The notes beneath the pieces are model-generated. The model saw only the letters and a list, made by a program, of their open reading frames with translations. It was not told the origin of the DNA and ran no database searches. From the NCBI GenBank assembly GCA_030819375.1, contig GCA_030819375.1_4699.1: a DNA stretch of 38,456 nt. The stretch is one strand, 5' to 3'. The position numbers and the translations under genes are program-made. The DNA comes from a phage. This document shows positions 6,285-19,803 of the stretch, in pieces (within the stretch, counting starts at the first letter, position 1; each line of letters starts with the position of its first letter).

Positions 6285-8273
6285 ATGGCTATTATTCAGA
6301 ATGTACCGTGTCCTGCTTGCCAAAAGAACGGACATGATATTACTGGCAATCATTTAATGATCTTTGACGACGGGGCAGGATACTGTAATCGTGGTCACTT
6401 CCATGATAACGGTAAACCTTATTACCACAAGCCGGAAGGTGGCATCGAGATAACCGAGTTACCTATTACTGGCAATATCAAATATACACCTTCTCAATTC
6501 AAAGAAATGGAGAAGGAAGGGAAGATAAGCGACCCTAAATTACGTGCCATCGCACTAGGTGGTATGCGTATGAAAGACCGTTGGGAGGTCATGAATGAGC
6601 AAGAAAGGGCAGACCAAGAAGCAGAGTGGAAACTTGATGTTGAATGGTTCCTCACGCTTAAGCGTAAGAACCTTGTTTCCCGACACATTCGCGGTGACAT
6701 TTGCGCATTGTATGATGTACGTGTCGGACACGATGAAGAGGGTAGAGTCACGCGGCATTACTATCCACGCTTCGAGCAAGGTGAGCTAGTAGGAGCTAAG
6801 TGTCGCACATTACCTAAAGACTTTAAGTTTGGTCATTTAGGTAAACTCTTTGGTATGCAAGATCTTTTCGGGATGAATACTTTGTCTCACGTGTTAGACA
6901 GGGGAAGACGAAAGGATTGCTTGCTTATTGTGGGTGGGGAACTGGATGCGCTAGCAGCGCAGCAGATGCTCCTTGATTCTGCCAAGGGTACTAAGTGGGA
7001 AGGTCAACCTTACCATGTATGGTCTGTTAACAAAGGGGAGTCTTGCCTTGAAGAGATTGTACAGAACCGTGAACACATCGCCCAATTCAAGAAGATTATT
7101 TGGGGCTTCGATGGGGATGAGGTAGGGCAGAAGCAGAATCAGCAAGCGGCTCGCCTGTTTCCTGGTAAATCCTATATCCTTGAATACCCCTCTGGTTGCA
7201 AAGATGCTAACAAGGCATTGATGGCTGGCAAGGCTAAAGAATTTGTAGATGCATGGTTTAATGCCAAGTCATCTGATGAAGTCTTTGGTAGCCAGATTAA
7301 ATCTATCGCATCTCAAAGGGATAAGCTCAAGGCTGCACGTCCAGAGCAAGGGTTATCATGGCCTTGGCCTAAGCTGAACAAGGTAACGCTAGGTATTCGT
7401 AAGAACCAGCTTATCATTGTAGGTGCAGGCTCTGGTGTAGGTAAGACTGAGTTCCTTCGCGAAGTGGTTAAGCACCTCATTGAAGAACACGGTGAATCTG
7501 TAGGCATCATTTCTACAGAAGACCCAATGGTCAAGGTGTCCCGTGCTTTTATCGGCAAGTGGATTGATAAGCGTATTGAGTTACCGCCAACCAACGATCC
7601 GAAAGAAGACGGATACCGTGAGGTGTTCGACTACACCGAGGAAGAAGCTAACGCTGCCATTGATTATGTGGCTGATACAGGGAAGCTGTTTGTAGCTGAC
7701 CTAGAGGGTGACTATTCTATGGAGAAGGTAGAGCAAACTTGCCTAGAGTTTGAGGCTATGGGCATTTCTAATATCATCATTGATAACTTAACGGGGATTA
7801 AATTAGATGAGCGTGCTTTTGGTGGGAAGGTTGGTGCACTTGATGAATGCGTCAAGCGGATTGGTACTATCAAAGACAGACATGCAGTTACTATATTCCT
7901 TGTATCACACCTTACACGTCCTCCGGCAAACCGTACCCAACACGAAGAAGGTGGCGAGGTTATCCTTTCTGACTTCCGAGGCTCAGGGGCTATCGGATTC
8001 TGGGCATCTTACGCCTTGGGGATTGAGCGTAACACAAGAGCTGAAACGCTTGATGAAAGAACTACCACGTACATCTCATGTGTCAAAGACCGCGACCAAG
8101 GTATCTACACCGGAACCAAGATCATGCTTAAGGGTGACATTCAAACCGGACGTTTGAGAGAACCTCAAGCCCGTACTAGGTCATTTGACACAGGCGAAGC
8201 AAGGCAACAAGAAGTGCCTGATTTACCGGACACTATAGAAGAGACTAACTTCGATGAAGAAAGTGAGTTTTGA
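6285..8273 (+). CDS. DNA primase/helicase (T7 gp4-like), 662 aa
   Basis: N-terminal Cys4 zinc ribbon (CPACQ...CNRGH), Walker A GAGSGVGKT, acidic C-terminus ending ...FDEESEF. Confidence 0.95.
   Translation: MAIIQNVPCPACQKNGHDITGNHLMIFDDGAGYCNRGHFHDNGKPYYHKPEGGIEITELPITGNIKYTPSQFKEMEKEGKISDPKLRAIALGGMRMKDRWEVMNEQERADQEAEWKLDVEWFLTLKRKNLVSRHIRGDICALYDVRVGHDEEGRVTRHYYPRFEQGELVGAKCRTLPKDFKFGHLGKLFGMQDLFGMNTLSHVLDRGRRKDCLLIVGGELDALAAQQMLLDSAKGTKWEGQPYHVWSVNKGESCLEEIVQNREHIAQFKKIIWGFDGDEVGQKQNQQAARLFPGKSYILEYPSGCKDANKALMAGKAKEFVDAWFNAKSSDEVFGSQIKSIASQRDKLKAARPEQGLSWPWPKLNKVTLGIRKNQLIIVGAGSGVGKTEFLREVVKHLIEEHGESVGIISTEDPMVKVSRAFIGKWIDKRIELPPTNDPKEDGYREVFDYTEEEANAAIDYVADTGKLFVADLEGDYSMEKVEQTCLEFEAMGISNIIIDNLTGIKLDERAFGGKVGALDECVKRIGTIKDRHAVTIFLVSHLTRPPANRTQHEEGGEVILSDFRGSGAIGFWASYALGIERNTRAETLDERTTTYISCVKDRDQGIYTGTKIMLKGDIQTGRLREPQARTRSFDTGEARQQEVPDLPDTIEETNFDEESEF
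8221..8243 (+). promoter_or_regulatory. Phage promoter embedded in the 3' end of the primase/helicase gene
   Basis: ATTTACCGGACACTATAGAAGAG; +1 G at 8238; encodes DLPDTIEE in frame. Confidence 0.65.
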
Positions 8274-8288
8274 TTAGTGTATTTATCA

Positions 8289-8320
8289 GGGCTTGTCTCA
8301 CATGTGAGACAGGCTCTTAT
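8289..8320 (+). terminator. Hairpin with GTCTCACATGTGAGAC core (copy 3), terminator or processing site
   Basis: 18-bp perfect palindrome 8294-8311 inside a ~12-bp stem with a G-U pair, followed by a weak T-run. Confidence 0.5.
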
Positions 8321-8349
8321 TAAGTACATTAAATAACTGGATATTGATT

Positions 8350-9033
8350 ATGTATAAATTAGTATTGAATGTAGGTGATTATGTTCGTAACATCAATGTA
8401 ACCTCACGTAGATATCGTTGCCGTGGTACTGTGACTAATGTAAGTGAAAACAGCTACTATGTAGAGTACAGTAATGGTATTAGACAGGCTTATCAAAAGG
8501 AATCAGCACATAACTACCTTGAGAAGATTGGAGAGGTAAGCAATCAATGTAAGTGCGTACACGATGAGATTTGCGATAAGTGTGCCCGCCAGCTGCATAA
8601 AATGCTATTATACCCTCTTCGCTATGGTGCTGGTGTTCAAACATTAGCAGAGGCATATGGCAAAAGTAAGACCACACTCAAGAAAGAGCGCCGCAATGTA
8701 ATCACTGGTAAGACTCAAAGTGAAATGATTAAACTATGTGGCACTGCATTAGGTGTTACGCAGTTTAATACTCGTTCATTGGGTAAATCCACAGGGCAAG
8801 CTATGGTGAAAGTTGGTGAAGCTATGATGCACCCAAATGTGCCTGTGCGAATCTTGGATGTTGACCATGCAATCACAGAGCATGGCACACCACGGCGTGT
8901 AGCTAATAATCATTTCGCCGACACTATAGAAGGTATTATTCGTAAGCAAGGGTTGCAGGGTCTTCACATCTTAAATGGTGAAGAATTACTGTACCTACCT
9001 ATCGTTACTGAAGAAACATACGTGAATATCTAA
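8350..9033 (+). CDS. Hypothetical protein (~227 aa)
   Basis: ORF track 8344..9033 begins at TTG; first ATG is 8350; no recognisable motif. Confidence 0.55.
   Translation: MYKLVLNVGDYVRNINVTSRRYRCRGTVTNVSENSYYVEYSNGIRQAYQKESAHNYLEKIGEVSNQCKCVHDEICDKCARQLHKMLLYPLRYGAGVQTLAEAYGKSKTTLKKERRNVITGKTQSEMIKLCGTALGVTQFNTRSLGKSTGQAMVKVGEAMMHPNVPVRILDVDHAITEHGTPRRVANNHFADTIEGIIRKQGLQGLHILNGEELLYLPIVTEETYVNI
8912..8932 (+). promoter_or_regulatory. Promoter-like sequence inside a coding region (ATTTCGCCGACACTATAGAAGG)
   Basis: Core GACACTATAGAAG conserved, upstream half divergent; +1 G at 8929. Confidence 0.35.
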
Positions 9034-9043
9034 GGAGTTAATC

Positions 9044-9262
9044 ATGACTAAGGTATTAATTTATATGCGTGGACCTCATAAATGCTATGCAGTTGTAGCA
9101 CCAGATGGTGTTAAGCCCTATAGTACTTCAAAAGGATTGGCATTAATAGGTGCTAGTAGTAGTGCAAGTTTCCAAATGGAACTTTCTGGTCATTTGACTG
9201 AATGGCAATTCCGTGAGGCTTTTAAAGTCATTGGCAGCTTCATGGTGAAATATGCAGAATAA
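9044..9262 (+). CDS. Hypothetical protein (72 aa)
   Basis: AAGGAG RBS; ORF track. Confidence 0.6.
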   Translation: MTKVLIYMRGPHKCYAVVAPDGVKPYSTSKGLALIGASSSASFQMELSGHLTEWQFREAFKVIGSFMVKYAE

Positions 9263-9428
9263 ACATAGTCTTAAAATGTTCGATGGTCATGAAGACCTGC
9301 AAGCCAAGATTACTAACCAAGCCTTCCTGTTCGCACAGGTAACTATGGCTGAGGCCAAGAAGAATAGTCTCACTCGTGAACAGGTTATCAAGGAAAGTGA
9401 AGTGAAACGTAAGATTCGCAGTCGATAA
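9252..9428 (+). CDS. Small hypothetical protein (58 aa), below ORF-track cutoff
   Basis: ATG 9252 overlaps the end of the upstream gene; ORF ends 7 nt before the terminator hairpin; no strong RBS. Confidence 0.3.
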   Translation: MQNKHSLKMFDGHEDLQAKITNQAFLFAQVTMAEAKKNSLTREQVIKESEVKRKIRSR

Positions 9429-9434
9429 GTCAAG

Positions 9435-9466
9435 GGTTGTCTCACGTGTGAGACAGCCTTTTATCA
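9435..9466 (+). terminator. Intrinsic terminator-like hairpin with GTCTCACGTGTGAGAC core (copy 4)
   Basis: Stem ggttgtctca/tgagacagcc (10 bp, one G-U), loop CGTG, followed by TTTTATCAT. Confidence 0.65.
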
Positions 9467-9488
9467 TATTGATTGGAGGATTAACTTT

Positions 9489-9596
9489 ATGAATAACTAC
9501 GACTCTGATTGGGATTTCCAAGATTCAATGCAACCTAAACCAGAAAGGAGGGAGGATGAGTTCGAAACAGATCAAATGTACGAGGATTTTTACTAA
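9489..9596 (+). CDS. Small acidic hypothetical peptide (35 aa) overlapping the HNH start
   Basis: GGAGG RBS 9 nt upstream of ATG 9489; MNNYDSDWDFQDSMQPKPERREDEFETDQMYEDFY. Confidence 0.3.
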   Translation: MNNYDSDWDFQDSMQPKPERREDEFETDQMYEDFY

Positions 9597-10035
9597 CTAC
9601 ATCCTCTACTCTGATGGTCGAGTTCTTAACGAGAAAACAGGGCAATACCTAAGAGGTTACTTAGATAAGGATGGGTATCATATTATGAATATTAAAGGGA
9701 AACACCTTAAAGTTCATAGATTAGTTGCTACTCATTTCATACCTAACCCTAATAATTTACCTGAAGTTAACCATAAAGATCATGACCGTCTAAATAATAA
9801 TGATTGGAATCTAGAGTGGTGTACTCATCAAGATAACAACAAGCATAGTTTGCATTTAGTGATAGCTTCTTGTGCTAAACGCTATGACTTTATATCACCA
9901 CAGGGCGTCCATGTAGAAGTCTATAACCTACGTGAATTTTGTAGGAATAATAACCTACAACAATCTCATATGGTTAAGGTAGCTAAAGGTAAAGTAAGAC
10001 ATCATAAAGGTTGGACTAATTATGCTAGATGTTGA
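9556..10035 (+). CDS. HNH homing endonuclease (159 aa)
   Basis: KVHRLVATHFIPNP...EVNHKDHDRLNNNDWNLEWCTHQDN motif; GGAGGGAGG RBS; sits directly upstream of and overlapping the DNA polymerase start. Confidence 0.85.
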   Translation: MSSKQIKCTRIFTNYILYSDGRVLNEKTGQYLRGYLDKDGYHIMNIKGKHLKVHRLVATHFIPNPNNLPEVNHKDHDRLNNNDWNLEWCTHQDNNKHSLHLVIASCAKRYDFISPQGVHVEVYNLREFCRNNNLQQSHMVKVAKGKVRHHKGWTNYARC

Positions 10036-12568
10036 TTGGAAAGAATTTGGAAAGAATCGCATACTTGTCATGGATGCTGAAAGTAAAGGTCTGCTTGATG
10101 CTATTCGCTATGGTCATCGCGAAGACGTGCACATCATTTGCTGCATGGACTTGCTCACTACCGAGGAGTTCCTATTCTTCGACCCATATGAGATGCGTGA
10201 CCCTGAGGCAAGGGAACGCCTGAAGGAGTGGGAAGGCCATCAAGACGGAACCTTGGTTGATGGTGTTAACTTCCTGAAGCATTGTGAAGCTATTGTGTCA
10301 CAGAACTTCCTAGGATATGACGGTCTTCTCTTTGAGAAAGCATTCCCTGATATTTGGAAAGGCTTTAACTATACCGAGAAGCGCGGTAAGGGCAGACTCC
10401 GTGCTGACCTGTGTCCGGTGCGAGTCATGGATACGCTGGTGATGAGTCGCCTGTTAAACCCCGATAGACGCCTTCCTCCGCAAGCATATGCCAAAGGTAT
10501 GGGTAACGTCGCCCCTCACTCAATTGAGGCGCACGGCATCCGTATAGGTCGCTATAAACCGGAGAACGAGGACTGGTCTAAACTAACTGACCACATGGTT
10601 CACCGTGTACGTGAGGACGTGGCGATTGGTCGTGACTTGTTCCTCTGGCTCTTTAACGGGGAATGGATGGAGCACAAACGCCGTGGCGTGAATAAACGCA
10701 CGGGCCTAGGCATTGAGACAGCCTTCCACATGGAGTCCATTGTGGCGCTGGAGATGAGCCGTCAGGCCGAGCGCGGGTTCCGTCTGGACATCGACAAGGC
10801 TTTGGCCCGATGCGAAGAATTGGACGCTAAGATTGATGAGACAGTCGCAGCGTTCCGCCCTCACATGCCTATGCGTATCAAGTCTAAACCTTTTAAACCG
10901 GAAGAAAAGAATGAAGTATGCCAACGCGCAAATGAGTATGGAGCTAGCAACAATATACCTACTGTCCTTGACCCCTCACACTTTCTTCATGCCGAGAGAC
11001 GAGGAGATCGCAAGACAGTATGGAGTGTCACTACTAAGTCTGGTGATTGGTCGGCTAGTGTCAAGAAAGACTTTCCTCACCTTAGAGGAAACCGTAATGA
11101 CACGCCAAGCATCAAGTGGATTGGCGCTTACTCGCCTGTTACTTTCGAAGAGATTCCCTTGGGTAACAGGGATACAGTTAAGCAAGTGCTCTATGATTAT
11201 GGATGGAAAGGTGCTGAATTTAACGATACCGAGCAAGCGCATCTCGATGAGTACGGAGTGTTACCCAAACCTTGGAGTGGTAAGATAAATGAAAAGTCCC
11301 TTACTTTATGGCAAGAAAGAGCCGCACGTGAAGGTAAAACAGTCCCTGATTGGTGCTTGGGTATCGCTGCATGGTACATACTCGTATCCCGTCGTGGTCA
11401 GATACTCAACCGTGGTGACGTTGAAGCCTTCAACGAGAAGGGAACGTGGCCCTCGCAGGCTGGTGTACGAAAGTGTCGCGGCCTTGTACCTGTAGCATTC
11501 AACAAGGAGCTAGGAATCAATGCGCAGCAATACTACGAGAGGTACGGATGTTGGCCTACGTCTGACAAAGATGACGGAGAGTGGCGTGTTCCAGCTGTTG
11601 CTATTAGCATTGGCACTTCTACGTTCCGTATGCGTCATCGTAACGTGGTCAATATTCCTGCCCGTGGCTTGTATCCTTTACGTGATTTATTCATAGCAGG
11701 GAAAGGCAAGCTAATCCTTGGTTGTGACGGTGCAGGTCTTGAACTGCGTGTCCTGTCTCACTTCATGAATGACCCTGAGTACCAAGAGATTGTACTGCAC
11801 GGTGATATTCATACGCATAACCAGATGAAGGCTGGTCTTCCTAAGCGTGATATGGCGAAGACGTTTATATACGCCTTCCTCTATGGCTCTGGTATAGCCA
11901 ACCTTGCAGCAGTATGTGGTGTTACTGAGGAAGAAATGAAGGAAGTTGTGGCAAGATTCGAGATTGAACTGCCGTCTCTTGCACGTCTTCGTGAGAATGT
12001 TATCGCACAAGGTAACAAGTTTGGCTACCTGCAAGCACCTGATGGGCATTGGGGTCGCATCCGCATGTCTGGTGGTGAACTTAAAGAGCACACGATGCTT
12101 AACGTATTACTCCAGATGACTGGCTCTTTGTGTATGAAATATGCATTAGTCAAGGCATTTGCAGTAATGCGCAAGGAAGGTGTAGCCTTGGACGCTATGG
12201 GAAATCCTTGTGGTGTGGCTAACGTGCATGATGAAATCCAGATGGAAGTTCCTGAAGAGGAGGTCTTGTATCTTAACTACGACCTACCTTTCACCTTAGA
12301 TGGGTTCGAAACAGAGAAGGCTGCCGTGCAAGCAGTGTTCGATGCAGAGGAGAAACGTGTTCATGTGGATTCTGAAGGACGTATGTGGTCTGCTGCAAAC
12401 CTCGTTAGTGTTGATGCTGATGCTGGTGTATTGCATTGCCAGCGCCGTTATCACCGTGCAGGTCATATCATTGCCGACGCCATGACTTGGGCAGGGCAGT
12501 ATCTGAAGATGCGTTGCCCGATGGCAGGCGAATATAAGATTGGCGCAAGTTGGAAGGAAACACACTGA
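10022..12568 (+). CDS. DNA polymerase, family A (T7 gp5-like), 848 aa
   Basis: Exo I motif ILVMDAE, motif B KTFIYAFLYGSG, motif C VHDEIQ; size close to what I recall for SP6-type polymerases. Confidence 0.95.
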   Translation: MLDVDWKEFGKNRILVMDAESKGLLDAIRYGHREDVHIICCMDLLTTEEFLFFDPYEMRDPEARERLKEWEGHQDGTLVDGVNFLKHCEAIVSQNFLGYDGLLFEKAFPDIWKGFNYTEKRGKGRLRADLCPVRVMDTLVMSRLLNPDRRLPPQAYAKGMGNVAPHSIEAHGIRIGRYKPENEDWSKLTDHMVHRVREDVAIGRDLFLWLFNGEWMEHKRRGVNKRTGLGIETAFHMESIVALEMSRQAERGFRLDIDKALARCEELDAKIDETVAAFRPHMPMRIKSKPFKPEEKNEVCQRANEYGASNNIPTVLDPSHFLHAERRGDRKTVWSVTTKSGDWSASVKKDFPHLRGNRNDTPSIKWIGAYSPVTFEEIPLGNRDTVKQVLYDYGWKGAEFNDTEQAHLDEYGVLPKPWSGKINEKSLTLWQERAAREGKTVPDWCLGIAAWYILVSRRGQILNRGDVEAFNEKGTWPSQAGVRKCRGLVPVAFNKELGINAQQYYERYGCWPTSDKDDGEWRVPAVAISIGTSTFRMRHRNVVNIPARGLYPLRDLFIAGKGKLILGCDGAGLELRVLSHFMNDPEYQEIVLHGDIHTHNQMKAGLPKRDMAKTFIYAFLYGSGIANLAAVCGVTEEEMKEVVARFEIELPSLARLRENVIAQGNKFGYLQAPDGHWGRIRMSGGELKEHTMLNVLLQMTGSLCMKYALVKAFAVMRKEGVALDAMGNPCGVANVHDEIQMEVPEEEVLYLNYDLPFTLDGFETEKAAVQAVFDAEEKRVHVDSEGRMWSAANLVSVDADAGVLHCQRRYHRAGHIIADAMTWAGQYLKMRCPMAGEYKIGASWKETH

Positions 12569-12684
12569 TGGATAGGCTTGACATTGTTTACCTCTTCTTC
12601 ACTTTCTTTCTTACACTCCTTATGCTTGCTTGTTATGGGAGTATGAGACTAGATATACCTGATGAAGAAGAGGGTTACGACTAA
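12568..12684 (+). CDS. Small hydrophobic peptide (38 aa), candidate membrane protein
   Basis: ATG overlaps DNAP stop (tgATG); MDRLDIVYLFFTFFLTLLMLACYGSMRLDIPDEEEGYD. Confidence 0.35.
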   Translation: MDRLDIVYLFFTFFLTLLMLACYGSMRLDIPDEEEGYD

Positions 12685-12782
12685 TGCAAACTGCTTTTAT
12701 TATTCTTGGTATCATATTATTTATGGTAGTATTCTGGGCTTTCTCTGGCATTGACCCAGATTGTGATGGTAACTACGACTGA
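12684..12782 (+). CDS. Small hydrophobic peptide (32 aa), similar design to the preceding one
   Basis: taATG overlap; MQTAFIILGIILFMVVFWAFSGIDPDCDGNYD; one TM-like helix then acidic tail ending YD. Confidence 0.35.
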   Translation: MQTAFIILGIILFMVVFWAFSGIDPDCDGNYD

Positions 12783-12791
12783 GTTATACTC

Positions 12792-12813
12792 AAGGTCACT
12801 TACGAGTGGCCTT
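12792..12813 (+). other. Hairpin (stem aaggtcact/agtggcctt, loop UACG) with the same flanks as the 31213 element
   Basis: ttatactcaagg-[hairpin]-cctttatga framework shared with 31204-31246. Confidence 0.35.
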
Positions 12814-12840
12814 TATGAATAACTTAACTAAGGAAATATT

Positions 12841-13101
12841 ATGATTAAATATACTTCTTATCAGTTAACTAAAGACCGTAAGATAGGTATTGAGGTTAAG
12901 GCTTGGGAGCGAGGTCCTATCTCTGGAGTAATAGAGGTGCGTTCCAATGAAGGTATGATGATTAGAAGACACTTTAGTTTCGCTAAATCTACTTGTAAGC
13001 ATTTAACAGAGGAACAATTCTTACATCATATTATTAATAATATTAAAGCCATCCAGCCTTATGCCAAGCAAGTTGTAGGTAATGTCACAGTAGTACATTG
13101 A
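12841..13101 (+). CDS. Hypothetical protein (86 aa)
   Basis: AAGGA RBS; ORF track. Confidence 0.6.
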   Translation: MIKYTSYQLTKDRKIGIEVKAWERGPISGVIEVRSNEGMMIRRHFSFAKSTCKHLTEEQFLHHIINNIKAIQPYAKQVVGNVTVVH

Positions 13102-13123
13102 TTTACTGGACACTATAGAAGGA
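13101..13123 (+). promoter_or_regulatory. Phage-RNAP promoter (ATTTACTGGACACTATAGAAGGA)
   Basis: Consensus copy overlapping the stop codon of the upstream gene; +1 G at 13118. Confidence 0.8.
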
Positions 13124-13187
13124 AAGCCTAGACAATCTAGGTTTATAAGGTAGTATAGGTAATTAAGTAAATATAGGAGAGATAAAT

Positions 13188-13565
13188 ATGTCTATGGTAA
13201 CTACTCTGGTATTCGTAGCTCAATACTTTCGTGGTCTTGCTAATAAGTTCAAGTCCAAGGCTATCAAAGCTATTGAGTCTCGCATCGAGGCAGTACAGGC
13301 AGAGCAAGTTAAAGTTGAAGAACATCGCAGCTCTCAAATGATTGACTGCCATAACCGCCACTATTCATCTCGTGATGACCTTAATGCACGCCAAGTCAAA
13401 GAGGTTGAAGAGATGCTGGCACGTCACCAGCAAGAGCGCGACAGCCTGAAAGCTGAATTTGAAGAGAACAAGGCATCCATCGCCCTTGTACATCAAGCCG
13501 CATCTGACAGCCTGAAGAAAGAGATTGTTATGCTGGAAATTGAGTTAGACAACCTGACCAAATAA
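13188..13565 (+). CDS. Hypothetical protein (125 aa) with short hydrophobic N-terminus and predicted coiled coil
   Basis: AGGAGA RBS; heptad-like charged repeats; no embedded lipoprotein ORF found in the other frames. Confidence 0.65.
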   Translation: MSMVTTLVFVAQYFRGLANKFKSKAIKAIESRIEAVQAEQVKVEEHRSSQMIDCHNRHYSSRDDLNARQVKEVEEMLARHQQERDSLKAEFEENKASIALVHQAASDSLKKEIVMLEIELDNLTK

Positions 13566-13586
13566 TTACTGGACACTATAGAACAA
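13565..13586 (+). promoter_or_regulatory. Phage-RNAP promoter (AATTACTGGACACTATAGAACA)
   Basis: Consensus copy overlapping the stop of the upstream gene; +1 G at 13581. Confidence 0.7.
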
Positions 13587-13642
13587 TAGGTCGGCTTAGT
13601 TCGGCCTATGATTGTGTAGTGTAACAATAGGAGACTAAATAA

Positions 13643-14449
13643 ATGGCACGTGGTGATTTTGATTTTGGTGCTCAGGTTACTAAAGCTGAAGGTAAGGTTT
13701 TTAAGAACCCTGAAGTTGGTGATCATGAAGCAGTAATCTCTGGCATCATTCATGTGGGTTCCTTCCAAGATATCTTTAAGAAAGGTAATACCACTGAAGT
13801 TAAGAAGCCAGCAAACTTTGTTCTTGTTAAGATTGTACTGATGGGTGACGATGACAAGAACGAAGATGATTCTCGCATGGAACAGTGGATGGCTGTGCCT
13901 CTGAAGTCTGGTGACAAGGCAACCTTGACTAAGTTCCTGAATGCAGTTGACCCTAAAGAGCTGCTTGGTGGTTTCGATGACTTCATTGGTGAATGCCTGA
14001 CTGCAACTATGGTTGGCTCTGGCGACAAGAAGGATGATGGTACTTTCAAGTATGTTAACTGGAAAGGCTTTGGCGGTATGCCTGATAAGTTGAAGAAGCT
14101 TGTAATGGCTCAGGTAGAAGAGGAAGGTCTGTCTATGACAGGTCATATCACCTTCGACAAGCTGACCAAAGAAATCCTTGATGACATTCCTGCTAACTTG
14201 GTACGTCAATACTTCCTGAACGAGACACCTCGTGGTAAGAACCTGTCTGTTGCTGGCTCTCACGTAGAAGCTATTATCAAAGCTGCTCGTGAAGAAGACC
14301 CTGAATGGAAGAAGGCTAAGAAGAAAGACGAGGAAGATGCTACTCCAGCTAATCGTAAGTCTCTGGATACTGGCGAGTCTGTTCCACAGGAAGTACCTGA
14401 AGCAGAAGATACTCCTGCACCGGAGATGGATGAGGACGCGGAATATTAA
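13643..14449 (+). CDS. Putative ssDNA-binding protein (gp2.5-like), 268 aa; function inferred
   Basis: Strong RBS (AGGAGA) directly after a promoter; size and acidic C-terminal tail ending in an aromatic residue (...PEMDEDAEY) resemble T7 gp2.5. Confidence 0.45.
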   Translation: MARGDFDFGAQVTKAEGKVFKNPEVGDHEAVISGIIHVGSFQDIFKKGNTTEVKKPANFVLVKIVLMGDDDKNEDDSRMEQWMAVPLKSGDKATLTKFLNAVDPKELLGGFDDFIGECLTATMVGSGDKKDDGTFKYVNWKGFGGMPDKLKKLVMAQVEEEGLSMTGHITFDKLTKEILDDIPANLVRQYFLNETPRGKNLSVAGSHVEAIIKAAREEDPEWKKAKKKDEEDATPANRKSLDTGESVPQEVPEAEDTPAPEMDEDAEY

Positions 14450-14458
14450 GGAGAAAGG

Positions 14459-14677
14459 GTGAAAGTACAAATCGTAACCCTGCACTGCAAGAAGGGTATC
14501 ACAACGCTCGGAGGTGGCACTTTCCACTCTTTCTCCGAAGGGGAGATTTATGCTGACCTGCACTACATCTGGCGCGACGGACAGCACGTGGTGAACTACA
14601 GCGACCCAGCTACGGGGAAACGCCACGGCGTATCGCTTCCGGCGCATGACATTGCTCAGGTGAACACAGTTTTATAA
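14459..14677 (+). CDS. Hypothetical protein (72 aa), GTG start
   Basis: AGGAG 5 nt upstream of GTG 14459; ORF track. Confidence 0.55.
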   Translation: MKVQIVTLHCKKGITTLGGGTFHSFSEGEIYADLHYIWRDGQHVVNYSDPATGKRHGVSLPAHDIAQVNTVL

Positions 14678-14678
14678 A

Positions 14679-14694
14679 GTCTCACGTGTGAGAC
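14679..14694. repeat. GTCTCACGTGTGAGAC hairpin element (copy 5)
   Basis: 6-bp stem with 4-nt loop directly after the stop codon at 14677 and 15 bp upstream of the promoter at 14710. Confidence 0.7.
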
Positions 14695-14709
14695 AAATCG
14701 GTGTCCGGT

Positions 14710-14732
14710 ATTTACTGGACACTATAGAAGAG
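14710..14732 (+). promoter_or_regulatory. Phage-RNAP promoter (ATTTACTGGACACTATAGAAGAG)
   Basis: Perfect consensus; +1 G at 14727. Confidence 0.85.
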
Positions 14733-14782
14733 AAGAATTTTAATCGGCGATAATGCCATAACCAACAAAAGGCGAATTTAAT

Positions 14783-15154
14783 ATGTTCAAGATTGAAACT
14801 ATCGTAAACCGTGTTGTTAAAGGTGCTGCTCTGGTATCCGTTGAGTCTTTCATTATCGTCGATGAAGATGATCAACTGGTAGCTGGTACTAAGGCTTACG
14901 ATACCCGTGAAGAAGCTCAGGCTAAGATTGACAGCATGGGTAACTTCGCTGCTGGTCTGGAGTTCGCTCGTGCTTGCTTCCCTGAGCAGGCTGACAAAGC
15001 TCAGATTGGTAAGGCTAATATCGTAGCTGAATATCTGGATTGGGTTGCTGCTGGTAAACCAATGAAAGAAATTAAGGCTGCTGAAGAAGCTGAAGCTCCA
15101 GCAGAAGAAGTAGCTGCACCGGAAACTCCGGTAAGCGAAGAGGAAGAATTTTGA
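14783..15154 (+). CDS. Acidic hypothetical protein (123 aa) ending ...SEEEEF; gene sits between a promoter and a terminator
   Basis: Promoter 14710 upstream, terminator 15213 downstream; acidic C-terminal tail ending in Phe. Confidence 0.8.
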   Translation: MFKIETIVNRVVKGAALVSVESFIIVDEDDQLVAGTKAYDTREEAQAKIDSMGNFAAGLEFARACFPEQADKAQIGKANIVAEYLDWVAAGKPMKEIKAAEEAEAPAEEVAAPETPVSEEEEF

Positions 15155-18504: not shown

Positions 18505-18672
18505 ATGGAAGTTAAATTGTACAGAGGTTACTTTGGCAACTTGTACAAAGTAAGTCGCAAGGGTTCTATATTAACATCCAATGATGAAGGTGCAACTTTA
18601 AGTGCCTATGGTTCTGACTTAGCGTACTTTAAAGAGGCAATAGTCAAAGGTGTGATGAAGGAGGTGAAATGA
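18505..18672 (+). CDS. Hypothetical protein (55 aa)
   Basis: ATG 18505 immediately follows the upstream stop, GAGGA RBS; track start 18487 is TTG. Confidence 0.5.
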   Translation: MEVKLYRGYFGNLYKVSRKGSILTSNDEGATLSAYGSDLAYFKEAIVKGVMKEVK

Positions 18673-19616
18673 ACATCTTCCAATTCCTAGGCCTTCCAGA
18701 AGATCACCGCAATCACCCATTCATGTTGGTGAAACATCGCGGTGAAGTTCCTGAGAAGAAATTAACCTTTCCATGTTATGCACAGGTGAAACGAGATGGA
18801 ATATTCAGTGCTGTTGTGGTGCGTAATGATGGTGTTGTTGCCATCTTTGGTCGTACTGGTAAGAAGCTCGCAAATGTTGAAGCCTTGGAGAAGGCATTTA
18901 GTGTATTTCCTGTCGGGTTGTATCTTGGTGAGTTGCAATCTATGGCTGTTGATGTTTATCTTGAAGCTCTATCAGGAGTGGTAAACCCTAATCGTACCGA
19001 GCCACTTGATTTCATAGGCCAGCAGATTAAAGACAACCTGTATATCGACTTCTTCGATATGTTAACCATTAAGGCATTCCATGATGGATTCACTGATGTT
19101 TCTTATCTCAAACGTTACGATGCTTTACATCGTCGCATCGGCGCTCATCTTAGCGGGTACAACGCTATCCTTCCTATTACTCCTTGCCATAATGAGCGAG
19201 AGGTTGAAGCGTTTGCACAAGCGCAAATAGATGCAGGCCGAGAGGGTGCTGTGTTTAAACTGGACTGTGATTATGAAGCAGGCCACAAAGGTTATCGTCA
19301 GACTAAAGAAGTCCGTAAGGTAACTTATGACCTTACTTGTATTGGCTTTGAAGAAGGCAAAGGCAAGTACAAAGGTAAGGTAGCTAACCTCATTTTCAAA
19401 TGGAAAGGAGGCAAGACAATCAAAGCTATGCTCGGTAAAGGGTGGACTCATGCAGATGCAGAACAGATGTTCCACGATATCAAACATGGTGGACGATTGA
19501 ATGTCATTGGTAAAATCTTTGAAGTCAAAGGTCTTCAGGATTCAAGCAAGGGCAACATTCGTCTGCCCAAAGCGGGAGAATTAAGACATGACAAAGATGA
19601 ACCAGATTTCTTTTGA
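18669..19616 (+). CDS. ATP-dependent DNA ligase (315 aa)
   Basis: Adenylation motif KRDG (YAQVKRDGIF); GAAGGAGG RBS. Confidence 0.9.
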   Translation: MNIFQFLGLPEDHRNHPFMLVKHRGEVPEKKLTFPCYAQVKRDGIFSAVVVRNDGVVAIFGRTGKKLANVEALEKAFSVFPVGLYLGELQSMAVDVYLEALSGVVNPNRTEPLDFIGQQIKDNLYIDFFDMLTIKAFHDGFTDVSYLKRYDALHRRIGAHLSGYNAILPITPCHNEREVEAFAQAQIDAGREGAVFKLDCDYEAGHKGYRQTKEVRKVTYDLTCIGFEEGKGKYKGKVANLIFKWKGGKTIKAMLGKGWTHADAEQMFHDIKHGGRLNVIGKIFEVKGLQDSSKGNIRLPKAGELRHDKDEPDFF

Positions 19617-19803
19617 TTCCATGAAGGCAACTCGTGCAGTTGAGGTGGCAGAGGCTATCTTTGAAACTCTATCCTGTGGCATGGAAGTGCCATATACTTT
19701 ACTTGCTGATGCAGAAGAACTTGGTCTTTCTGTAGAAGCTATCCAAGAGAAGGTTGACGAATTATATGGTACAGACGAAGAAGAAACCTACGATTTCATT
19801 TGA
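19588..19803 (+). CDS. Hypothetical acidic protein (71 aa)
   Basis: ORF track; GGGAGA RBS; overlaps the ligase 3' end. Confidence 0.5.
   Translation: MTKMNQISFDSMKATRAVEVAEAIFETLSCGMEVPYTLLADAEELGLSVEAIQEKVDELYGTDEEETYDFI

Follow-up and report, generated by a model that had tools for sequence, protein, structure and literature searches.

Here we describe a set of acidic C-terminal tails encoded in a 38,456-nucleotide stretch of phage DNA (NCBI GenBank assembly GCA_030819375.1, contig GCA_030819375.1_4699.1), called the window below and numbered from its first letter. Three proteins of its replication module, a primase/helicase, a 268-residue protein predicted to have the fold of a protein that binds single-stranded DNA (an SSB) and a small acidic protein of 123 residues, have a C-terminus in which a stretch of acidic residues precedes a final Phe or Tyr, and the last residues of these ends change together from one phage lineage to the next. 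We consider it fairly probable that the three tails are competing docking motifs for one site, most probably on the phage DNA polymerase, and that the 123-residue protein is an accessory or regulator of the replisome. Phage T7 is the textbook minimal replisome, in which contacts between tails and polymerase are central to the coordination of helicase, SSB and polymerase. The tail mechanism has been described in T7, and one would expect to meet it on the helicase and SSB analogue of an SP6-like phage; what is probably new is a third client, unique to SP6-like lineages, with a tail that co-evolves with those of the helicase and the SSB analogue. The window is a Vectrevirus, an SP6/K1-5-like phage: Escherichia phage LL11 matches the region at 98% identity, and K1E and other Vectrevirus genomes (Autographiviridae, Molineuxvirinae) match it at 95-97%; SP6 is a more distant relative whose SSB-like protein is 84% identical. 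The three proteins and their tails lie as follows.

6285..8273, + strand: primase/helicase of the T7 gp4 type, 662 residues (Pfam DnaB_C and Toprim_2; PHROG 239 'DNA primase/helicase', E 2.5e-187; so annotated in LL11 and SP6)
8172..8273, + strand: helicase tail beyond the helicase domain match, a linker and then ...NFDEESEF with the stop codon
13643..14449, + strand: 268-residue protein, predicted oligonucleotide/oligosaccharide-binding (OB) fold, likely binding single-stranded DNA (ssDNA); SP6 gp18 family, PHROG 862
14327..14449, + strand: tail of the 268-residue protein, disordered residues 229-268 as judged by the predicted local distance difference test score (pLDDT), ending ...PEMDEDAEY with the stop codon
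14783..15073, + strand: folded domain of the 123-residue protein, residues 1-97, a beta-hairpin and three helices, acidic (isoelectric point, pI, 4.6), of no known fold
15074..15154, + strand: tail of the 123-residue protein, a linker of Ala, Glu and Pro, disordered by pLDDT, and then ...PVSEEEEF with the stop codon

The first-pass annotation had pointed to these three ends, and all three open reading frames (ORFs) and their C-termini are exactly as it gave them: ...TIEETNFDEESEF for the helicase, ...APEMDEDAEY for the 268-residue protein and ...TPVSEEEEF for the 123-residue protein. Four of the 41 ORFs on the plus strand end in Phe, Tyr or Trp; all four lie in the replication module, and each has at least 4 Asp or Glu among the preceding 7 residues. 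Inside the proteins of the window this 8-residue acidic-aromatic pattern has a frequency of 0.00069, so that 0.028 C-termini would be expected to carry it against the 4 observed, an enrichment of about 140-fold (binomial P ~2e-8, or ~3e-6 for three). In T7 only two proteins have such ends, gp2.5 (...ADEDGDF) and gp4 (...SNDTDF). One could argue that the likeness is compositional, acidic disordered C-termini being common and some of them ending in an aromatic residue without any shared function; with about 8% of the residues in the window's proteins aromatic, three or four aromatic ends among 41 proteins are not unusual, and the ligase has an acidic-aromatic end that shows no covariation. Against this stand the enrichment of the combined motif, the conservation of the tails down to 30-35% identity beside hypervariable linkers, and a covariation seen in just these three proteins and, within them, only over the last 3 residues. 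A merely coincidental likeness is thus very improbable, and coincidence as the origin of the tails is effectively excluded.

The ends are conserved where their surroundings are not. In the fetched loci, 26 of 28 distinct helicase sequences end in Phe or Tyr, the most divergent of them 47% identical, and so do all 34 distinct locus copies of the 268-residue protein and all 28 of the 123-residue protein. Of 25 homologues of the 268-residue family, with identities as low as 35%, 24 keep the Tyr or Phe behind a variable linker. The helicase tail has the consensus [DE][DE]x[QSE]E[FY], with an internal Phe or Trp 7-8 residues upstream as in T7 ...DWSNDTDF, and the 268-residue tail the consensus [LM]D[DE][DE]xE[FY]. 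Mean pairwise identity is 0.52-0.68 over the last 2 residues and 0.10-0.16 at positions -9 to -25. Linker length and linker sequence are free to vary, and the terminal aromatic residue is conserved across homologues of all three proteins; to judge from these alignments, conserved ends on variable linkers are what marks out a short linear motif held on a flexible tether.

The evidence that ties the three tails to one another is their covariation within genomes. In Aeromonas HJG the three proteins end in ..GASY, ..EAAY and ..DAAY; in a Klebsiella-type clade (L047-49) they end in ..SEY, ..AEY and ..EEY; and in the Pseudomonas Uliginvirus genomes (L060, L143-L146) one or two residues follow the aromatic in the SSB-like and 123-residue proteins of five out of five genomes, and in the helicase of two out of five. 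Each clade was represented by one genome and genome labels were permuted; the last 3 residues then matched within real genomes more often than within shuffled ones, between helicase and 123-residue protein (p 0.0013), between SSB-like and 123-residue protein (p 0.0011) and between helicase and SSB-like protein (p 0.0001). The same covariation was absent at linker positions -4 to -9 and -10 to -20 (p >0.1), and the termini of the ligase, exonuclease and polymerase did not covary with the three tails. Since neither the linkers nor these control termini carry the signal, genome composition does not explain it, and compositional bias was rejected as its cause. An outside control came from other metagenomic phages of the T7 supergroup, without this SSB family. 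Their helicases have ends in common (EVL/EVL, AL/VL, EF/EF) with a protein whose match to the gp2.5-like family PHROG 112 is mostly weak (E 7.7e-7 to 8e-4). In the loci L094, L097, L102, L103, L110, L084, L120 and L122 the helicase often ends in Leu or Ile (...EEEAL, ...EEIL, ...EKEL), and the protein of the same genome with the mostly weak match to the gp2.5-like family ends alike. What is matched within genomes is therefore a hydrophobic terminal residue, not strictly an aromatic one.

Common changes of the last 2-3 residues in three unrelated proteins point to one acceptor shared by all three tails, and they support a functional tie between the 123-residue protein and the helicase and SSB-like protein. 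The docking motif would consist of a hydrophobic residue placed about 6-8 residues before the C-terminus, then acidic residues in a row and a final E-[F/Y] with its free carboxylate, carried on a disordered linker; with it the helicase, the OB-fold protein and the 123-residue protein would bind, in competition, one acceptor site on the replication machinery. By analogy with T7 gp4 and gp2.5 this acceptor would most probably be a basic surface of the phage DNA polymerase, and the 123-residue protein, expressed in abundance and tethered by its tail, would serve the replisome as an accessory or regulator. That the tails compete for a single polymerase site, and that this places the 123-residue protein in the replisome, had been proposed in the first-pass annotation; the conservation, the disordered linkers and the covariation are as such competition would have them, and from them we infer, with good support, that the 123-residue protein belongs in the replisome.

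The likeness to T7 extends to several details. As on T7 gp4 and gp2.5, a terminal aromatic follows an acidic disordered stretch, and within one phage the helicase and the ssDNA-binding protein both have it (here with the SSB role predicted); tails of the same genome are alike in both systems, ..DTDF and ..DGDF in T7 and ..ESEF and ..DAEY in the window; and in both helicases a second aromatic stands 7 residues upstream (DWSNDTDF in T7, NFDEESEF in the window). The systems differ in that the penultimate residue is Glu in the window and Asp in T7, in that the window's phage has a third, unrelated tail bearer with no T7 homologue, and in that the acceptor patch of the polymerase is only partly conserved and the SSB comes from another sequence family.

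The polymerase is, by sequence, a clear homologue of T7 gp5 (hhalign probability 99.9% over the full length), and the parts of it that matter here are the following.

10022..12568, + strand: family A DNA polymerase, 848 residues, candidate tail acceptor (Pfam DNA_pol_A; hhalign to T7 gp5)
12047..12085, + strand: polymerase residues 676-688 (HWGRIRMSGGELK), at the position of the front basic patch of T7 gp5 (BLASTP, hhalign)

In T7 the front basic patch of gp5, K587/K589/R590/R591, is bound by the gp2.5 tail and by a DTDF peptide from gp4 (PMC12339929). Removing the terminal Phe of T7 gp2.5 is dominant lethal, according to the title of a study cited in PMC12339929. The T7 patch KWKRR aligns with HWGRIR of the window's polymerase, with only R679 and R681 conserved; W677, G678, R679 and R681 do not vary among 7 divergent polymerases, and the Colwellvirinae polymerases have the more basic RWGRIRKSGKK at that position, with a net charge of +3 to +6. 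The window's polymerase has, besides, a basic insert (around residues 320-350) at the position of the thioredoxin-binding thumb loop of T7. The conserved arginines and the basic insert are compatible with docking on the polymerase and do not prove it, and by analogy the acceptor of the tails is probably the phage DNA polymerase.

A different partner would serve the covariation just as well, given that covariation shows a common partner and not which one it is. The tails might act as DNA mimics in the ssDNA groove of the OB-fold protein, in cis for its own tail and in trans for those of the helicase and the 123-residue protein, or they might bind the helicase or the exonuclease; on that view the 123-residue protein would regulate or chaperone the SSB-like protein and not partner the polymerase. 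The 123-residue gene is found only alongside the SSB-like family, just downstream of the SSB-like gene, although this adjacency weighs little because gene order is conserved genome-wide in these phages. An AlphaFold model described in PMC12339929 puts the gp2.5 tail in its own DNA-binding groove, whereas the T7 precedent for docking of the tails on the polymerase (PMC12339929) is strong; and while the T7 basic patch is poorly conserved in the window, the polymerases of relatives carry a basic patch at the corresponding position. On balance we regard a partner other than the polymerase as unlikely.

Several observations nevertheless weigh against docking of all three tails on one polymerase site. 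The window's polymerase keeps one of the four basic-patch residues of T7 (R590, aligned with R679). In T7 the helicase is a further contact of the gp2.5 tail, and stimulation of the gp6 exonuclease requires that tail (PMC4124056), so the acceptor may be a protein other than the polymerase. The covariation was sampled over about 15 clades, with few independent events, and in the window's own clade the SSB-like tail ends in Tyr and the other two in Phe. The SP6 helicase ends in ...NTQEFNG, two residues past the Phe (L163, 614-2599), with no such extension on the other two SP6 tails. Some members of the 123-residue family have no aromatic end (P0179, P0181, P0189 and L070), and two related phages, L054 and L057, lack the gene, so that the tail and the protein appear dispensable in some lineages. 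With these points included, the competing docking motifs remain the reading that we prefer.

The first-pass annotation had called the 268-residue protein SSB-like, and the label holds for its predicted OB fold but not for any sequence similarity to an SSB. In the AlphaFold2 model (pLDDT 78) residues 26-144 form a beta-barrel with the features of an OB-fold barrel and residues 148-230 a helical domain, while the end is disordered (residues 229-258 have pLDDT <50); the closest structural match of the protein is PrgE, not gp2.5. From this model the protein is likely an ssDNA-binding protein, and as an OB-fold protein it is a probable functional analogue of gp2.5. Membership of the gp2.5 family itself (Pfam PF21265 SBB_T7, PHROG 112) was rejected, there being no Pfam, PDB-sequence or hhalign signal for it: Pfam matched none of 25 members of the 268-residue family, hhalign against T7 gp2.5 gave a probability of 0.1%, a profile of the family against the T7 proteome returned noise only, and the PHROG to which the protein is assigned, 862, is of 'unknown function'. 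Like the gp2.5 family it has an OB fold, here a predicted one, and behind it a long acidic tail with an aromatic end, and its gene stands in the replication module with a phage promoter of its own; it differs in lacking sequence or profile similarity, in the extra helical domain and in gene position, its gene following the polymerase gene where that of gp2.5 precedes the primase gene. A weak NCBIfam match to 'phage replication initiation protein, NGO0469 family' lies below threshold (E 7e-4, 19 bits against a cutoff of 75).

The 123-residue protein, the third bearer of the tail, is modelled (pLDDT 81) as a beta-hairpin and three helices with a disordered tail from about residue 97, residues 102-120 having pLDDT <50. 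It is acidic throughout, with a pI of 4.3 overall. A tblastn search found its family in 213 phage records; among the records listed, genomes are 37.8-47.8 kb long and the family is annotated as hypothetical or of unknown function in all, and those phages of the family whose taxonomy was examined are all Autographiviridae. When 1.8 billion representative proteins were searched with residues 1-97 only, so that the tail could not drive the matches, about 21 full-length relatives were found, 33-59% identical, and about 16 of them end in an acidic run and Phe. In distant phages a homologue of 86-93 residues occupies the same site between the SSB-like and exonuclease genes and still ends in ...E-x-F. 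In L070 the helicase ends in ...DAFG and the SSB-like protein in ...EDFS, and the homologue of the 123-residue protein has lost its tail (...EDEPASA).

Searches of other kinds gave the 123-residue protein no known relative: Pfam and NCBIfam had no match, PDB sequence and profile searches returned noise, Foldseek against BFVD found an uncharacterised homologue only, and none of the solved structures, known DNA mimics included, matches it. A profile of the family against the T7 proteome likewise gave noise, with no hhalign probability >5%, hence no T7 homologue. An assignment as a DUF1508/YegP-like protein (PF07411) was rejected, 0 of 24 family members matching at E up to 1; the hints of it had been a label on the 80%-identical homologue P0197, which was not reproduced, and sub-threshold Foldseek matches (E 0.27-0.42). 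A literature search found no paper on SP6 gp18, SP6 gp20 or their tails.

The 123-residue gene has a promoter of its own. Promoters of the SP6/K1-5 type, taken as matches to ATTTACTGGACACTATAGAAGAG with at most 3 mismatches, occur 7 times in the window, all on the + strand, against 0 expected by chance.

5954, 8221, 13101, 13564, 14710, 23070 and 38412, + strand: promoter positions, by match to ATTTACTGGACACTATAGAAGAG
13564..13586, + strand: promoter upstream of the 268-residue gene, 3 mismatches to ATTTACTGGACACTATAGAAGAG
14710..14732, + strand: promoter 50 nucleotides upstream of the 123-residue gene, zero mismatches, the sole perfect match in the window

The capsid promoter has 1 mismatch to the consensus. 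A perfect promoter suggests an abundant 123-residue protein, which would fit a stoichiometric partner or competitor. Upstream of this promoter and just past the stop codon of a 72-residue ORF lies a perfect hairpin, GTCTCAC-GTG-TGAGAC (14680-14697), which could be a terminator or a processing site of the RNase III type.

The same features allow the 123-residue protein to be seen as an acidic decoy directed at the host, with the likeness of its tail to the others secondary: either a DNA mimic or nuclease inhibitor in the position of T7 gp5.9, or a mimic of the C-terminus of the host SSB (DDDIPF) by which host enzymes that bind SSB would be hijacked or blocked. Like gp5.9, a RecBCD inhibitor, it is small and very acidic as a whole and is encoded immediately upstream of the exonuclease, and it has a strong promoter of its own; but gp5.9 ends in ...KLNGTS with no terminal aromatic, the 123-residue tail covaries with the replisome tails, which a gp5.9-like role leaves unexplained, and the 123-residue protein has no sequence or profile similarity to gp5.9 or any other T7 protein and no match among the solved structures mentioned above. 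A gp5.9-like assignment by sequence was rejected on the profile search against the T7 proteome. As for the host SSB, it too ends in an acidic run and Phe, on a disordered linker, and brings various proteins to a single kind of pocket (PMC5872125); yet the I-P-F core of the host motif is in none of the tails of any lineage examined, and the host motif is described as highly conserved (PMC5872125) where the phage tails vary by lineage, and jointly. The two systems differ also in that one bacterial SSB serves many acceptors, where the phage has several tail bearers and presumably one acceptor. Mimicry of the SSB C-terminus is disfavoured by the mismatch in motif and by the variation of the tails with phage lineage, and we hold a host-directed decoy of either kind to be quite improbable beside a replisome docking motif.

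The ligase has to be considered among the acidic ends of the window as well.

18669..19616, + strand (tail 19596-19616): ATP-dependent DNA ligase, ...RHDKDEPDFF (PHROG 114), considered as a fourth tail and excluded

While the first-pass annotation named its three tails correctly, it overlooked this fourth one, ...DKDEPDFF. The ligase was rejected as a member of the set: its sequence runs only 6 residues past motif VI; many of its relatives end in D-[FY], with the aromatic lost in several; and it shows no covariation with the three tails (p 0.18-0.42). Also rejected was a 71-residue protein (19588-19803) ending in ...GTDEEETYDFI, whose aromatics lie near the end and not at it, and whose relatives end inconsistently in DDFI, DYQY, EAYY, ETDD or EDSE. 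A 122-residue early protein (1294-1662) has a pure acidic run at its end that recalls the end of T7 Ocr (...EEYEEDEE).

The helicase, by its sequence a clear homologue of T7 gp4, has a tail with two further peculiarities. Its linker (SFDTGEARQQEVPD, 8181-8222) and that of the SSB-like protein (SLDTGESVPQEVPE, 14360-14401) have in common a 14-residue motif, S[FL]DTG..x..QEVP, in the Molineuxvirinae, and among more distant relatives the helicase tails widely carry a motif [SN]FD[TQDIY]G; the shared linker motif could be a second common contact or an old exchange of tail segments. The promoter at 8221-8243 (1 mismatch) lies within the tail-coding region, where (G)AT TTA CCG GAC ACT ATA GAA GAG reads D-L-P-D-T-I-E-E. 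This promoter probably accounts for the conserved LPDTIEE or LGDTIEQ of Molineuxvirinae helicase linkers, the DNA doubling as promoter and coding sequence.

The genes of the replication module are ordered as primase/helicase, HNH endonuclease, polymerase, a 125-residue coiled-coil protein, the 268-residue protein, a 72-residue protein, the 123-residue protein and the exonuclease, and the order of polymerase, SSB-like protein, 123-residue protein and exonuclease is kept across Molineuxvirinae, Colwellvirinae and Gajwadongvirus. The HNH gene is placed as follows.

9556-10035: HNH homing-endonuclease gene, directly upstream of the polymerase gene and overlapping its start

In LL11 a second HNH homing endonuclease is annotated upstream of the helicase gene; HNH genes near the polymerase and helicase are typical mobile insertions for SP6/K1-5-like phages. 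The segment between the polymerase and 125-residue genes (12568-13100) is variable: an 86-residue ORF in it (12841-13101) has a weak match to PDDEXK_15, and LL11 does not align before position 13095 of the window, where KMB14 aligns.

The common binding site, the polymerase as that site and the role of the folded domain of the 123-residue protein are what we infer from these comparisons. One can go a step further, if only tentatively, and suppose that the 123-residue protein is an abundant non-enzymatic replisome regulator of a new kind, its main activity being to present a tail of the helicase/SSB type and so to compete for, or hold open, the polymerase site, timing the hand-offs between polymerase, helicase and SSB or the recycling of the polymerase, or else that its acidic domain tethers a processivity or host factor to the fork; we think this doubtful as it stands. 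If true, the co-evolving 'tail code' would mark, for SP6-like phages, a hub with three clients for which T7 has no counterpart.

More than 200 phages have been sequenced from the SP6/K1-5 group and the marine phages related to it (Molineuxvirinae, Colwellvirinae and Gajwadongvirus), several of them isolated with therapy in mind, and in every record examined, LL11 and SP6 among them, the probable SSB (SP6 gene 18, the gp18 family) and the 123-residue protein (SP6 gene 20, the gp20 family) are listed as 'hypothetical protein'. Our analysis gives the SP6 gp18 family a likely function and offers for the SP6 gp20 family the hypothesis of a third client at a docking site of the replisome. Covariation of C-termini within genomes can reveal proteins that share an acceptor, and the approach is applicable to other phage replisomes. 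If the 123-residue protein does dock on the polymerase, the 'four-protein' replisome of the T7 type would gain a regulated component in a large sister lineage.

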